Origin: Escherichia coli
GTDB taxonomy: Bacteria; Pseudomonadota; Gammaproteobacteria; Enterobacterales; Enterobacteriaceae
Direction: 5' to 3' (one strand)
DNA: 64,000 bases
Assembly: GCF_044324785.1 (NCBI RefSeq)
Contig: NZ_CP172127.1
Shown here: one piece after another, positions 22,168-64,000 of the stretch
How the letters are laid out: each line of letters opens with the position of its first letter
Numbering within the stretch: the first letter of the stretch is position 1
The notes under the pieces: model-generated
What the model saw: the letters and a program-made list of their open reading frames with translations, nothing else
What the model was told of the DNA's origin: nothing
Databases searched by the model: none
Position numbers and translations under genes: made by a program

Positions 22168-22347
22168 GATAAATGGCACTCCTTCGGTTAGTGAAACGAG
22201 AAAACCAGTTAAAGTTCGATTGCGGCCTGGCACAGGGGCGCTAATTATACTCATCTCTGCGCCGCTGGGGAGGGGAAATTTAGGGGTAATAGTAATAAAT
22301 TGTATGCAAAAGCCACGCAAAAAGCATGGCTCTGAATATTTTTGCAC

Positions 22348-23823
22348 TTAAATATGATGAATAATCACTTTGTTGCCCCCATCGCTTTTCGCTTCGCGTA
22401 AGGCTTTATCTGCTTCCGTCATGACAAGCGAGATATTACGTGTGTCACCCGTTGAAAAAACCGTGCCAATACTGATGGTCATTTGCTCAGGAACATCATA
22501 TCTGTTACTAAAGCCGGTCAGGAGTTCGACATTTTTACGCATACGATCCGCAATGATTTTTGCCTGGGCACTATTGAGTTCGGTAAATAGCAAGCCAAAC
22601 ACCTCACCCTCCAGTCGCGCTAAAATATCATCGGGGCGGATGCTTTGCTGGATAATATCGACAATTGAAACCAGCACTTTATCACCCACACGATGTCCCC
22701 ATTGGGCATTGATGCGTTTGAACTGATTAATATCAACCAGCATGACACAGAAGTCCTTAACAACAGGTCGCGACAATAATGACTCTACGCTGTTGAAAAA
22801 GTAGCGCCGATTATAAATATTGGTCAGCACATCATGAACTGCCAGTTTGCTGGAGAGTTGCAGTTCCTGAAAAATGTTATAAATCAGAAAAGACACAACA
22901 AACAGTTTACTGGAGACTTCAATCCCGCGACTGATATACCAGATGGTATAATTATACTCATCCAGAGTCAGTAGAAGTAAGTTGCAGCATAGCGATGCCA
23001 GACATAATAATGCTATTAACGGCCATAGTTCGCTGGCTAATCGTGTACGCATGATAATAAAGAACAGTAAAAATGCCCACAGACAAACCAATATTTTTGT
23101 ATAGTTGATTCCCCAGGTCGCAGTATGGTTGTCCGGACAGTAATCGACGACATACAAAGAATAGTCAGCGTTATAACTGCTCAGATTGTGTGCCAGAAGG
23201 GGAAAAACTAAAAAAGGAATCAGCGCCAGCAACAGGATCCCCGTTTTTTTCTTATTGTTGTCAAGGATGTTGTCTTTACCATAACAAAAGAGCGCCAGCG
23301 AGGTTAAACAAATAAAACTGAGTTGGCGGAAAATATAGAAAATAGAAACATCATTCGACTTTGTCTGGATCAGTGTGCTGTCGTTGATTGGTTTATGGAT
23401 AATTACAATGGTTTCAACTAAATAGATAAGGCCACTTAAAAATGCAAGGCTTAAAATGAGTGTTGGTAAAATTTGTTTGTTAGTGAAATATTTCATTAAC
23501 ATGAAAAGAAAAATGACGGCGTTAAGGAAAAACAAAGCCACAACAACCATCAGGTAATTCATCTGTGGGATGAGTTTTACATTCGTGTTTTCGTTATATA
23601 AGGTAGTAATGCAAAATAAAATTAACGTCAGCAATAAACTGAAAATAAAAAAGCCTTGAGCTTTTAATTTTTGTGTACCCATAGAAACCATAAAAAGGAG
23701 AGCAATGTGAGTGCTGGATTTTATTGATGGCAGAGATATATAGTTTTGACCAGGATCAATTTTCGTTAACGATAAAAAATATTTAAAGAATAACCCCAGG
23801 GAAACACGTGTTGACCGAATCAT
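22348..23823 (-). CDS. cdgI: membrane GGDEF-domain protein CdgI (YeaI) with degenerate active site
   Basis: 491 aa; multi-TM N-terminus; GGDEF position reads EGEVF, so probably not a cyclase. Confidence 0.8.
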   Translation of the reverse strand: MIRSTRVSLGLFFKYFLSLTKIDPGQNYISLPSIKSSTHIALLFMVSMGTQKLKAQGFFIFSLLLTLILFCITTLYNENTNVKLIPQMNYLMVVVALFFLNAVIFLFMLMKYFTNKQILPTLILSLAFLSGLIYLVETIVIIHKPINDSTLIQTKSNDVSIFYIFRQLSFICLTSLALFCYGKDNILDNNKKKTGILLLALIPFLVFPLLAHNLSSYNADYSLYVVDYCPDNHTATWGINYTKILVCLWAFLLFFIIMRTRLASELWPLIALLCLASLCCNLLLLTLDEYNYTIWYISRGIEVSSKLFVVSFLIYNIFQELQLSSKLAVHDVLTNIYNRRYFFNSVESLLSRPVVKDFCVMLVDINQFKRINAQWGHRVGDKVLVSIVDIIQQSIRPDDILARLEGEVFGLLFTELNSAQAKIIADRMRKNVELLTGFSNRYDVPEQMTISIGTVFSTGDTRNISLVMTEADKALREAKSDGGNKVIIHHI

Positions 23824-25365: not shown

Positions 25366-27300
25366 TTAAGACGATTTACGTACGCGCAAATACCATTCGC
25401 ACAGTAAACGCACCTGTTTACGGGTGTAGCCTTTTTCCATCATACGGTCGACAAAGTCGTCATGTTTCTTCTGCTCGTCGGTTGACGTTTTGGCGTTAAA
25501 CGAAATAACCGGCAACAGCTCCTCGGTATTGGAGAACATTTTCTTCTCAATAACCGTGCGCAGTTTTTCATAGCTGGTCCAGTTCGGATTGCGTCCGCTG
25601 TTATTCGCTCTGGCGCGCAGTACGAAGTTAACAATCTCGTTGCGGAAATCTTTTGGATTACTGATCCCCGCCGGTTTCTCGATTTTCTCCAGCTCGGCGT
25701 TAAGAGACTCGCGGTCAAACAACTGCCCGGTATCCGGATCGCGATACTCCTGATCCTGAATCCAGAAATCCGCGTAGGTAACATAACGGTCGAAAATGTT
25801 TTGCCCATATTCGGAATAGGATTCAAGGTAGGCCGTCTGGATCTCTTTGCCGATAAACTCGGCATATTTCGGGATCAGATAACCTTTCAGGAACTCCAGA
25901 TAGCGTTCTGCCTGCTCTTGCGGGAACTGCTCGCGCTCGATCTGCTGTTCCAGGACGTAGAACAGATGGACCGGGTTTGCCGCCACTTCTACATGATCGA
26001 AGTTGAACACGCGGGAGAGGATCTTAAACGCAAAACGCGTCGACAGACCGTTCATCCCTTCATCGACACCGGCATAGTCACGATATTCCTGATACGACTT
26101 GGCTTTGGGATCGGTGTCTTTCAGACTTTCGCCATCATAAACCCGCATCTTTGAATAAATGCTGGAGTTTTCTGGCTCTTTCAGGCGCGAAAGAATGGAG
26201 AAACGTGACAGTGTTTCCAGCGTGCCAGGGGCGCAGGGGGCGTGAGTCAATTCACTGTGATTAAGCAATTTCTCGTAGATTTTGATCTCTTCGGAAATGC
26301 GCAAGCAATACGGCACCTTCACGATGTAAACACGATCGAGGAAGGCTTCGTTGTTTTTGTTATTACGGAAAGTGACCCATTCGGATTCGTTCGAGTGGGC
26401 GAGAATAATCCCGTTGAACGGCAGGGCGGAGATACCTTCCGTCCCGTTGTAGTTACCTTCCTGAGTGGCGGTTAGCAAGGGATGCAGCACTTTTATCGGT
26501 GCTTTAAACATCTCGACAAATTCCATGATCCCCTGATTGGCGCGGCACAGCGCACCGGAATAGCCGTAGGCGTCCGGGTCATTCTGCGCGTAGTGTTCGA
26601 GTTTACGAATATCGACTTTCCCAACCAGCGCGGAGATGTCCTGGTTGTTCTCATCACCGGGTTCCGTTTTGGCGATAGCAATTTGTTGCAGAATTGACGG
26701 CCAGACCTTCACTACCCGGAACTTAGTGATATCGCCACCAAATTCATGCAGGCGTTTTGCCGCCCACGGCGACATGATGGTGCCGAGATAACGGCGAGGA
26801 ATGCCATACTCTTTTTCCAGAATCTGCGCATCTTCCTGCGGATTGAAAAGACAGAACGGATGATCGTTGACCGGGCTACGCTCACCGTTGGCGCTCAATA
26901 CATAAATCGGTACGAGCTGCATTAATGATTTCAGTCGCTCAGCAAGCGATGATTTACCCCCACCCACAGGCCCCAGCAGATACAGGATTTGTTTCTTCTC
27001 TTCCAGCCCCTGAGCCGCGTGTTTCAGATAAGAGACAATCTGTTCAATCGCGTCTTCCATGCCGTAAAACTCTTCAAACGCCGGATAACGTGCAATGACC
27101 CGGTTAGAAAAGAGTCGAGAAAGTCTGGGTTCCTGGGCTGTATCGACCATGACAGGCTCACCGATAGCCATCAATAGCCGCTCAGCCGCGTTGGCATAAG
27201 CACTGCGATCTTGCCGACAAGTGGTAAGAAACTCCTGCAGTGTGAACTCTTCGTCCTTGGCAGCTTCATATCGCTGGCGATAGTGATCGAATATATTCAT
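25366..27300 (-). CDS. yeaG: PrkA-family serine protein kinase YeaG
   Basis: 644 aa; AAA-type Walker A GPVGGGKSSLAERL in the N-terminal domain. Confidence 0.9.
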   Translation of the reverse strand: MNIFDHYRQRYEAAKDEEFTLQEFLTTCRQDRSAYANAAERLLMAIGEPVMVDTAQEPRLSRLFSNRVIARYPAFEEFYGMEDAIEQIVSYLKHAAQGLEEKKQILYLLGPVGGGKSSLAERLKSLMQLVPIYVLSANGERSPVNDHPFCLFNPQEDAQILEKEYGIPRRYLGTIMSPWAAKRLHEFGGDITKFRVVKVWPSILQQIAIAKTEPGDENNQDISALVGKVDIRKLEHYAQNDPDAYGYSGALCRANQGIMEFVEMFKAPIKVLHPLLTATQEGNYNGTEGISALPFNGIILAHSNESEWVTFRNNKNNEAFLDRVYIVKVPYCLRISEEIKIYEKLLNHSELTHAPCAPGTLETLSRFSILSRLKEPENSSIYSKMRVYDGESLKDTDPKAKSYQEYRDYAGVDEGMNGLSTRFAFKILSRVFNFDHVEVAANPVHLFYVLEQQIEREQFPQEQAERYLEFLKGYLIPKYAEFIGKEIQTAYLESYSEYGQNIFDRYVTYADFWIQDQEYRDPDTGQLFDRESLNAELEKIEKPAGISNPKDFRNEIVNFVLRARANNSGRNPNWTSYEKLRTVIEKKMFSNTEELLPVISFNAKTSTDEQKKHDDFVDRMMEKGYTRKQVRLLCEWYLRVRKSS

Positions 27301-27403: not shown

Positions 27404-27419
27404 AGCAACTCTCATGCCA
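27404..27419 (-). promoter_or_regulatory. sigma54 promoter of yeaGH
   Basis: Minus strand reads TGGCAT-GAGAG-TTGCT, matching TGGCAC-N5-TTGCW with correct GG/GC spacing, about 105 nt before the yeaG ATG. Confidence 0.65.
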
Positions 27420-27735
27420 TTTTATCGACGATGAGAACAACGTGCCCGGTGATACACCTTCAAAATTAAGCGTAGATGGCAAATGGAAAACTTGCCTACA
27501 CGGCTTTCTTAATTTCAATGGCATATCAACAACTCATCCATAAATTTTGCATAATTAATGTAAAGACCAGGGTCGCCAGTAACGCTAAATTCATTTGGCT
27601 GTAAGCGCGATGTCATCCGCGTCAGGAAAATTAAACAGTTACTTTAAAAAATGAAAACGTAAAAAGGTTGGGTTTCGATGTATTGACGGGTAAACTTTGT
27701 CGCCCGCTAAACATTTGTTTAAGGAATGATTAATT

Positions 27736-61296: not shown

Positions 61297-62007
61297 CTAT
61301 CCTTCATTTTTTGGGTGAGAAAGTGGGCTGCGGCGAGAAGCAGACAGATCCACATGTTTGTGTCGGGCGTAGAGTTTTGCGAGCTGGACGAGAATAAACA
61401 GCGCCAGGCCCGCCAGACAGAGTTGTAAAATAAAGCGCAGCGTAATGCCTTCATTGGCGAGATCGCTTGCCATCACGGTATAAATAACAATACCGGGCAG
61501 GGTCGTGAGTGCCGAAATAAGGGTATAAGGCCAGAAGGCGATTGTGGTTAATCCGTAAGCGTAATTTTGAATATTGTAAGGAAACAACGGGATTAAGCGG
61601 GTCAGAATAAGAAAATCAATACCGTTACGCGCAATGCCTTTTTCAATGGCCTGAAAGGTATGGCTATGGCCAACGTATTTCAGCAGTAAATCACGTCCCA
61701 GCCAGCGCGCCAGCAGGAATGAGCACGAGGAGGCCAGCGTGGCGGCAATTAATGATAGTAGTGTCCCTAAGAGCGGGCCAAAAACTATTCCTCCAGCGAT
61801 CACCAGTATGCTTCCTGGTAACAGAAAGAGGGTGGCAATGATGAATAACAGAATATAGAGGCTATAACCGAACAATCCGCTCTGGCGAATGAGTGTCAGT
61901 AAGTGAGGTAAATCGGTGAGCAGCTCGAATAAACCGAAAGCGTGGAAAGCGTAAATGACCAGCGCAAAAATAAGACAGGCAAACAGAAATTTACGCTCAG
62001 CGTTCAT
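61297..62007 (-). CDS. ydjX: TVP38/TMEM64 (DedA-related) membrane protein YdjX
   Basis: 236 aa from ATG 62007 (MNAERKFLFACLIFALV); paralogous in architecture to ydjZ. Confidence 0.8.
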   Translation of the reverse strand: MNAERKFLFACLIFALVIYAFHAFGLFELLTDLPHLLTLIRQSGLFGYSLYILLFIIATLFLLPGSILVIAGGIVFGPLLGTLLSLIAATLASSCSFLLARWLGRDLLLKYVGHSHTFQAIEKGIARNGIDFLILTRLIPLFPYNIQNYAYGLTTIAFWPYTLISALTTLPGIVIYTVMASDLANEGITLRFILQLCLAGLALFILVQLAKLYARHKHVDLSASRRSPLSHPKNEG

Positions 62008-62173
62008 TGTGGAGTTTCCTATATCAAACTTGATAATAGAGAAGTGGTCAGACAACTAAAAACGCAGTGACGGTATAACAAAGGGCGGCAGGCAACAAAT
62101 CATTACTGACAGTTTGTTGATTTTTCTCAAGGTTAATTCTCCTGACCCAGTTTGAGCCAGGAGAACAGCTAAA

Positions 62174-62980
62174 TTAGCGGCGGAAGGTCGCCCAGACGGG
62201 GGCGTGATCGGACGGTTTTTCCATGCTGCGGATTTCATAGTCGATGCCGGTTTCTACGCAACATTCTGCCAGCGGTTGGCTGGCGAGAAGCAGGTCGATA
62301 CGCAGACCGCGGTTATCGTCAAAACCTTTTGAGCGGTAATCAAACCATGAGAAACGATCGGCTGTTTGCGGATTCGCATGGCGGAAGGTATCGACCAACC
62401 CCCAGCTCATCAGTCTCTCCATCCATTCGCGTTCTTCAGGAAGGAAAGAGCATTTTCCGGTACGCAGCCAGCGCTTACGGTTCTCTTCGCCAATGCCAAT
62501 ATCCAGGTCGCCAGGACTGATATTCATATCGCCCATAATCAGCACCGGATTTTCACGCTTGAGTTCGGTTTCCAGGTAGTTTTGCAGATTCTGATAAAAC
62601 TGCGCCTTTGCCGGGAATTTTATCGGATGGTCGCGGCTTTCACCCTGCGGGAAGTAACCGTTGATCACGGTAACATTGCCCAGCGTCGAGGGGATTTCAG
62701 CCATAATAATTCGCCGTTGCGCCTCTTCGTCATCACCCGGAAAACCGCGACGCACGGCAATCGGCGTCTCTTTGGTCAGCAGCGCCACGCCATAATGGCC
62801 TTTCTGCCCGTGATAAAACACGTTGTAGCCGAGCTTCGCCACCTCTTCGAGCGGAAACATATCGTCATGAACTTTTGTCTCCTGCAGGCCAATCACATCC
62901 GGTTGGTGCTTTTCGACGATGGCTTCAAGCTGGTGAGGTCTGGCGCGCAGGCCGTTGATATTAAAAGAGACAAATTTCAT
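62174..62980 (-). CDS. xthA: exodeoxyribonuclease III
   Basis: 268 aa from ATG 62980 ([18 protein letters not shown]); AP-endonuclease fold. Confidence 0.9.
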
Positions 62981-63102
62981 AGTCGCTGCCATTTATTCAG
63001 ATAAAGAGTGCGTGGATGGTAGCAGAATTTCGCTTTGCGTACCGCCTGTTGTTAAGTGATTTGATCGATGGTTGTTAATGATGTCAACGATGGCGCAAAA
63101 AA

Positions 63103-63139
63103 TGCCCGCTTTTGGTGCGCGCTGCGTCAGAATGGCGCA
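63103..63139. promoter_or_regulatory. two adjacent NtrC-like enhancer sites upstream of astC
   Basis: TGCGTCAGAATGGCGCA (63123-63139) matches TGCACC-N5-GGTGCA at 13 of 17 positions; weaker TGCCCGCTTTTGGTGCG at 63103-63119; about 200 bp before the sigma54 promoter. Confidence 0.45.
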
Positions 63140-63337
63140 GTAATTTCCAGTAAATTTCGTCAATGATCACAATTCCAGAATTATATTTTACTTCTGCATA
63201 ACATTACGTTTTTTATTCTTTTTATTCACCCACATCGCAAACGTATTCACTTTATATGCACTTTAAATGCATATGGTTTGGTTATAACTCCTTGATTTCC
63301 AGTTAGCCTCCGCCGTTTATGCACTTTTATCACTGGC

Positions 63338-63353
63338 TGGCACGAACCCTGCA
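63338..63353 (+). promoter_or_regulatory. sigma54 promoter of the ast operon
   Basis: TGGCACGAACCCTGCA matches TGGCACG-N4-TTGCA with correct spacing, about 70 bp before the astC ATG. Confidence 0.7.
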
Positions 63354-63389
63354 ATCTACATTTACAGCGCAAACATTACTTATTATTAA

Positions 63390-64000
<611 letters not shown>

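Follow-up and report, generated by a model that had tools for sequence, protein, structure and literature searches.

Comparative analysis of the known astCp2 control region of Escherichia coli: NtrC, ARG-like and IHF-type elements upstream of astC

Introduction

What shapes the DNA between the distant NtrC enhancer and the sigma-54 promoter of the E. coli astC gene, and how strictly is the spacing of its elements kept? An original prediction, made from the 64,000-nucleotide stretch of E. coli DNA analyzed here (hereafter the window), placed upstream of astC a sigma-54 promoter with a distal NtrC enhancer and possible ArgR boxes between the two, and this is indeed the published architecture of E. 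coli astCADBE. We are highly confident that the region controls the arginine succinyltransferase operon astCADBE and that it contains astCp2, the name under which the architecture of sigma-54 promoter, NtrC enhancer and ArgR sites is already known and published. The recovery of astCp2 from raw sequence reveals that a first-stage reader can recognise a sigma-54/NtrC/ArgR architecture, and has little discovery value.

Genetic and biochemical work on the astC promoter goes back to 1998-2002. The astCADBE control region of E. coli K-12 is reportedly the subject of Kiupakis & Reitzer 2002 (J Bacteriol 184:2940), and the ast control region of S. Typhimurium is said to be that of Lu & Abdelal 1999 (J Bacteriol 181:1934).

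Results

The xthA/astC region is nearly identical to that of K-12

In its last kilobase, the window covers the divergent intergenic region between xthA and astC of E. coli. Of 5426 complete E. coli genomes, 5424 were matched by a 601-bp query across it, at 90-99.5% identity, and all its matches are annotated as lying between xthA and astC. The astC coding region, so annotated in the E. coli genomes that match, occupies positions 63426-64000 of the + strand (the first 191 codons, after which it leaves the window). Its ATG is at 63426, not 63427, and the 191-amino acid AstC fragment is 99% identical to that of E. coli and 65-93% identical to those of other genera. The divergent neighbour xthA, coding for exonuclease III, is located at 62174-62980 on the - strand, with the real start (MKFVSF) at 62980.

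When the spacer was compared with K-12 MG1655, 4 of 445 positions differed and no indels were found. The substitutions, at 63034, 63039, 63206 and 63404, all lie outside the sigma-54, NtrC and IHF motifs, and only the one at 63206 falls within an ARG-like box, in its weak right half. Given this near-identity, the published K-12 experiments apply directly to the window, whose positions are converted by the expression K-12 coordinate = 1831982 + 63426 - window position. Relative to K-12 astCp2, which is the same locus and shares the sigma-54 motif, the NtrC enhancer, the ArgR dependence and the sigma-S input, the window sequence carries no functional difference.

The sigma-54 promoter departs from the consensus before the -12 element

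The original prediction proposed a near-consensus sigma-54 promoter about 70 bp before astC. We found TGGCACGAACCCTGCA (TGGCACG-N4-CTGCA) at 63338-63353 on the + strand, and 72 nt separate the end of the motif from the astC ATG. The GG of the -24 element (63339-63340) and the GC of the -12 element (63351-63352) are exactly 10 bp apart, as is characteristic of sigma-54 promoters, and comparison with TGGCAC-N5-TTGCW showed C instead of T before GCA as the only mismatch. When no more than 1 mismatch was tolerated, this pattern occurred 7 times in the window against 3.35 expected. The motif agrees with the Salmonella astC sigma-54 site, TGGCACGAATGCTGCAAT, obtained by ChIP-chip (PMC3844500). The promoter is named astCp2 in PMC7045595, where it is reported to be a weak sigma-54 promoter, and astCADBE is listed among the NtrC-dependent operons (PMC4066584).

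An earlier sigma-54 promoter in the window had been assigned to yeaG. This assignment was confirmed: TGGCATGAGAGTTGCT, at 27404-27419 on the - strand, equals the published Salmonella yeaG site (PMC3844500) and is located 104 nt upstream of a 644-amino acid open reading frame (25366-27300, - strand).

Just upstream of the -24 element of astCp2 there is a conserved T-rich stretch, TATGCACTTTTATCACTG (63318-63335, -46 to -29), within which TTATGCA is nearly invariant. This stretch might represent an ARG half-site, or else serve as an upstream contact. Downstream of the promoter, the geometry of the -24 and -12 elements predicts a transcription start at about A63364, and hence a 62-nt leader (63364-63425, + strand). 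The leader contains a GAGG Shine-Dalgarno sequence at 63417-63420 and, in the alignment described below, conserved blocks. One of these, the A+T-rich TTAACATATAAATAAC (window 63380-63400, about +20 to +37), had a median ARG-like matrix score of 4.9 bits across orthologues, and ArgR might make a downstream contact here, or the block might be subject to post-transcriptional control. A search for structured RNA, by an Rfam scan of 62000-64000, returned one chance-level match only.

The NtrC sites are poor dyads in a unique arrangement

The original prediction had also placed two adjacent NtrC-like half-palindromes far upstream of the promoter. Their presence and position were borne out, but they are actually full, imperfect 17-bp dyads. 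NtrC (NRI) enhancer site 1, TGCCCGCTTTTGGTGCG, is located at 63103-63119, with its centre about -253 from the predicted sigma-54 start, and site 2, TGCGTCAGAATGGCGCA, at 63123-63139, with its centre about -233. The two centres, 20 bp apart, precede the -24 element by 227 and 207 bp. Two or more adjacent 17-bp dyads that share a helix face upstream of a sigma-54 promoter are the sequence mark of an NtrC enhancer, and this is the arrangement found here.

Each site is a poor match, disagreeing with TGCACC-N5-GGTGCA at 3 of its 12 specified positions, and when up to 3 mismatches were allowed the window contained 31 matches against 32.5 expected. The pair, with its 20-bp distance, is the only one of its kind in the 64 kb. 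Random sequence of the same dinucleotide make-up gave an expectation of 0.25 such pairs per 64 kb, and of about 6e-4 for the 150-bp zone upstream of a given promoter. Single motifs are thus not above chance, and the signal is carried by their arrangement.

In E. coli, an NtrC ChIP-seq peak with a 23-fold enrichment was assigned to astCADBE, and a passage of the same source credits the direct binding of NtrC to Kiupakis & Reitzer 2002 (PMC4066584). The 80-bp interval of that peak (PMC4066584), after genome-version conversion, falls over the core promoter and not over the enhancer. It was therefore discarded as a locator of the enhancer and was used only as evidence that NtrC binds to the region. 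The same gene-ward offset seems to be present at glnK, with the gene at the coordinates that we take to be its own.

The elements hold their positions across Enterobacterales

A scan of one genome per species yielded 80 loci encoding AstC relatives, 44 of which keep xthA divergent from astC. The MAFFT alignment of the window with 43 related spacers revealed sharp footprints separated by unconserved DNA. Sequences were also anchored, without gaps, on the sigma-54 motif; when the window and its 80 related loci were scanned, 62 of these 81 sequences had the motif with both GG and GC. The promoter-bearing loci belong to Escherichia, Citrobacter, Enterobacter, Kluyvera, Cedecea, Pantoea, Erwinia, Tatumella and others, and among the 81 sequences the sigma-54 promoter was absent from the Acinetobacter, Halomonas and other distant loci.

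Across the 62 Enterobacterales genomes, the sigma-54, NtrC, ARG-like and IHF-type elements are conserved in position, and from about -199 to +5 the conserved blocks align gap-free in Enterobacteriaceae and Erwiniaceae. Such fixed spacing suggests a stereospecific complex. The comparative map is of modest value in that it reveals a segment, from -199 to the start site, that tolerates no indels across two bacterial families. The base preceding the -12 TGCA in the 62 astC promoters was C (40), G (21) or A (1), and never the T of the consensus. This conserved departure may keep astCp2 weak and dependent on the architecture of the loop.

At the conserved position of NtrC site 1, many genera have a closer match to the dyad consensus (e.g., TGCACCATTTTGGCGCG), and when the interval from -300 to -200 was searched, the two best NtrC-like sites were 20 bp apart in 35 of the 62 loci. 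In Enterobacteriaceae they are found at -253/-233. Several Erwiniaceae loci have them near -263 and -243/-244, about 10 bp, or one helical turn, further out, and in those loci the IHF core and the GATCACA block described below have not moved. A shift of the enhancer by one turn, with the downstream elements fixed, is the pattern predicted by a face-of-helix constraint on a DNA loop. Several loci of the Pantoea, Erwinia and Tatumella group (L045-L070 in our set) have an apparent third NtrC-like site.

ARG-like boxes are found between the enhancer and the promoter

As had been proposed, the DNA between the NtrC sites and the promoter is AT-rich (67% A+T over 63140-63335 vs 50% for the whole window). 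Its imperfect palindromes had been suggested as possible ArgR boxes, and this suggestion held in part. The palindrome TATGCACTTTAAATGCATA is present at 63255-63273 (a repeat search gave arms at 63254-63263 and 63265-63274 with 90% complementarity) and overlaps the best ARG box, but it is not itself the best register. As a canonical ARG box it was rejected, with 2.7 and 5.6 bits for its own registers vs 12.0 for 63245-63262. These scores were obtained with a symmetrised matrix built from 19 K-12 operator boxes (carAB, argA, argR, argECBH, argI, argF, argG, argD, artJ and artP). The matrix replaced the simple counting of ARG consensus matches, in which the enrichment mostly reflected A+T content: the matches were 6-10 fold over the whole window, and only about 2-fold over composition-matched shuffles.

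The box at 63245-63262 (ATTCACTTTATATGCACT, centred at -110.5 and 10 bp to the left of the palindrome) is the only strong ARG match in the spacer and the second best in the 64 kb. It is part of a cluster of overlapping ARG-box registers (63234, 63245 and 63255/6) that spans 63234-63273 (-130 to -91), includes the palindrome, and is the probable main contact of ArgR. Further upstream lies an ARG-box-like 18-mer, TCTGCATAACATTACGTT (63193-63210, -171 to -154), which scores 3.5 bits in the window sequence and whose left half, TGCATAA, is conserved and reads TGAATAA in Citrobacter. Across the 44 aligned spacers, register 63245 had a median of 11.6 bits, with 91% of the orthologues at 5 bits or more, followed by registers 63193 (6.2 bits; 68%), 63234 (5.5 bits; 55%) and 63255 (3.9 bits; 41%).

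ArgR operators have been described as two boxes with 18+3+18 spacing (PMC6640053; PMC4381063). Registers 63234 and 63255 form a pair with this canonical spacing, but a weak one (1.8 and 2.7 bits, with a sum of 4.5), and the best 18+3+18 pair in the region reached 9.4 bits. An operator was taken here as two imperfect 18-bp palindromes, WNTGAATWWWWATTCANW, with a gap of 3 (or 2) bp. When the single sequence was compared with composition-matched random DNA, the ARG signal had a P of about 0.08 for the top score and of about 0.05 for the count of registers with at least 2 bits. Since this signal is marginal, the assignment to ArgR rests on conservation and on the literature, and the exact boxes are provisional. 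Arginine-bound ArgR is reported to bind the ast control region within the loop; superinduction in E. coli depends on it, as does induction in Salmonella, and it acts at ast as an accessory factor that is not essential (PMC3037356; PMC12341379). The main text of the ArgR ChIP-exo paper (PMC4381063) does not mention astC.

An exact IHF-type core is conserved at -73

An exact match to the IHF core, AATCAAGGAGTTA (consensus, WATCAANNNNTTR), was found at 63285-63297 on the - strand, centred at -73 and preceded by the A/T-rich 5' flank that is looked for in such sites. In the 128 kb of both strands it is one of 7 exact cores, against 2.9 expected. At -72/-73 the exact core recurred in 57 of the 62 loci, and there was a single other match anywhere in the 500-bp upstream regions. 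The ATCAA and TTA parts were present in 60 of the 60 sequences tallied, with a variable N4 between them and an A-rich 5' flank (AAW), which is a classical signature of an IHF site. As judged from these comparisons, the predicted IHF-type core is the most strictly conserved element of the loop, above any ARG box, and it probably provides a second sharp bend. The astC enhancer is cited in PMC4740811 among those that lack sites for IHF.

The same positions include TTGATT (63292-97), which was considered as a sigma-70 -35 element and rejected: no acceptable -10 is found at 16-18 bp, and the sigma-70 scan finds none there. The conserved TAA-N4-TTGAT pattern is better explained as an IHF site than as a sigma-70 -35.

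A nearly invariant block lies downstream of the enhancer

The most conserved upstream block is a nearly invariant 25-bp sequence, GATCACAATTCCAGAATTATATTTT, at 63165-63189 (-199 to -175). Its GATCACA, which contains a GATC (Dam) site, is invariant in the 44-genome alignment, and in most Erwiniaceae loci, too, the spacing between block and promoter is unchanged. The identity of a possible ligand was considered. At this block, the CRP dyad TGTGA-N6-TCACA is present only as its right half, within GATCACA (63165-63171); the left half, TTCGT, matches at 2 of 5 positions and is not CRP-like in other genera either, and a full CRP site was thus rejected. Comparison by hand with the Lrp SELEX consensus gave agreement at 12 of 15 positions in E. 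coli and a poor fit in Erwiniaceae, and the ARG matrix gave weak scores of 2.5 and 5.7 bits. It has been reported that astC is a direct Lrp-activated ChIP target (bioRxiv 276808), and CRP is listed among the ast regulators. The block (GATCACA...CCAGAATTATATTT) may bind a factor such as Lrp, a partner of a CRP half-site, or another protein.

A putative sigma-S -10 overlaps the sigma-54 promoter

Conservation does not end at the -12 element, but extends through TCTACATTTACAG to about +5. Within this segment, TACATT at 63357-63362 of the + strand, preceded by C (TCTACATT), is a putative sigma-S/sigma-70 -10 that overlaps the sigma-54 promoter. A simple sigma-70 scan made no call for TACATT at 63357-63362. 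The expression of astC is sigma-S dependent in stationary phase (PMC1413537; bioRxiv 082537), and a sigma-S -10 at TACATT fits this dependence. It is probable, from sequence and conservation, that the sigma-S -10 is located here, and the corresponding start would be predicted at about 63369-71.

Discussion

The biochemistry of the NtrC/sigma-54 family, in which phosphorylated NtrC oligomerises, reaches the closed complex by looping and drives promoter opening with ATP, is well established. For astC, the dependence on rpoN and NtrC, the binding of NtrC and ArgR, and the dependence on sigma-S come from the work of others; the present analysis shows the motifs with their spacing and conservation; the exact ArgR boxes, the binding of IHF and the position of the sigma-S promoter are what we infer. 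We propose that, under nitrogen limitation, phosphorylated NtrC would occupy the dyads at about -253/-233, which, with a spacing of 20 bp or roughly two helical turns (about 21 bp), would lie near the same face of the helix, and would assemble there into the active AAA+ oligomer. Sigma-54 RNA polymerase would wait at 63338-63353 as a closed complex with the -24 GG and -12 GC, and the roughly 230 bp of A+T-rich DNA would loop so that NtrC touches the polymerase and, by hydrolysing ATP, opens the promoter, with transcription starting near 63364. Arginine-loaded ArgR hexamers would bind the ARG boxes of the loop, most likely at 63234-63273 and 63193-63210, and bend the DNA, thereby raising expression further when arginine is present ("superinduction"), and would be dispensable for basal nitrogen induction. 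IHF bound to the conserved site at -73 would probably add the second bend, and expression in stationary phase would probably proceed from the sigma-S-type -10 that overlaps the sigma-54 promoter.

Could the motifs simply co-occur by chance in an A+T-rich intergenic region, with no joint function? Taken singly, each occurs in the window about as often as expected by chance, and the ARG-like matches are only about twice the composition-matched expectation. However, the window contains no second such NtrC pair, whose expected count is tiny, the elements hold their positions without indels in 62 genomes of two families, and ChIP and genetic data have been published for the near-identical K-12 sequence. 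Conservation and the published binding data already refute chance as the explanation, and we consider it to have practically no standing. Nor do we think it at all likely that the operon is driven in vivo mainly by the overlapping sigma-S (or sigma-70) promoter, with the sigma-54 motif acting largely as a competing, poised site. Such a role would suit the sigma-S dependence of astC in stationary phase, the plausible -10 (TCTACATT) over the -12 region, the conservation beyond the sigma-54 elements and the reported weakness of astCp2 as a sigma-54 promoter. Against it, expression analysis and ChIP have documented nitrogen-limited induction through NtrC and sigma-54, a decoy would have no need of the enhancer pair, which is nonetheless conserved, and the two modes are condition-specific rather than exclusive.

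A less remote alternative, which we still regard as unlikely, is that the loop is shaped mainly by IHF together with another factor (CRP, Lrp or else) on the invariant block, and that the called ARG boxes and the palindrome are not true ArgR contacts. In its favour, no ARG box is as strictly conserved as the IHF core, which matches its consensus exactly, the block at 63165-63189, where upstream conservation is highest, has a poor ARG score, and both the Lrp ChIP result (bioRxiv 276808) and the presence of CRP among the regulators would be accommodated. Yet ArgR-dependent induction and ArgR binding have been published for E. coli and Salmonella, the box at 63245-63262 is the second-best ARG box in the 64 kb and reaches at least 5 bits in 91% of the orthologues, and the block offers one CRP half-site only and an Lrp match of 12/15. 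A bolder reading, held tentatively and with more doubt than confidence, is that the astC enhancer works through a fixed-geometry complex that would use both IHF and ArgR, with an additional factor on 63165-63189, and not purely through "ArgR instead of IHF", the class to which it has been assigned. The IHF-type site and the invariant block may be small additions to the known picture, possibly already documented.

The relationship of the astC boxes to canonical ArgR operators (argA, argECBH, argI, argF, carAB and others) is one of shared vocabulary and different layout. The half-sites are of the same type (TGAAT/TGCAT ... ATTCA), and the 12.0 bits of 63245-63262 fall within the range of genuine operators (9.0-22.4 bits for the training boxes). 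Canonical operators consist of two 18-bp boxes, 3 bp apart, over a sigma-70 promoter, where they repress. In contrast, the ARG-like boxes of astC lie 90-170 bp upstream of the start, would be activating, and have registers that overlap at 10-11 bp steps, with no strong 18+3+18 pair.

A position of -73 is within the usual range for the IHF sites of glnHp2/nifH-type promoters. These promoters have an IHF site between the enhancer and the -24/-12 elements, and at astC the predicted site is likewise placed; this class of sigma-54 promoters has been described in PMC4740811. The astC enhancer differs from that of the glnHp2/nifH type in its distance (-233/-253 vs roughly -110 to -140), and the extra roughly 120 bp contain the ArgR-type boxes and the invariant block. 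If IHF does bind, astCp2 would provide a natural case in which two different bending proteins shape a long bacterial enhancer loop (about 250 bp), and such a two-protein loop would bear on models of loop-mediated regulation.

Some further observations were made in the window. The exonuclease III gene xthA is sigma-S dependent. On its strand, the conserved TGCTACCAT at 63016-63024 (-) resembles an extended -10 with C at -13, which would suit that dependence, and the astC NtrC sites are only about 100-120 bp upstream of this element. The yeaG sigma-54 promoter (27404-27419, - strand) is preceded, at a distance of about 130 bp, by an ARG-box-like 18-mer, TTTGCATAATTAATGTAA, at 27546-27563, with 10.7 bits; yeaG may have a regulator-in-loop layout similar to that of astC. 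The strongest ARG pair in the window, TCTGAATATTTTTGCACT taa ATATGATGAATAATCACT, is located at 22331-22369 and scores 21.1 bits with the K-12 operator matrix. In the E. coli matches of the surrounding stretch, the annotation shows cdgI and dgcJ, both diguanylate-cyclase genes, and a sigma-54-like match that has no -12 GC lies 85 bp from this pair, at 22453-22468 on the - strand.
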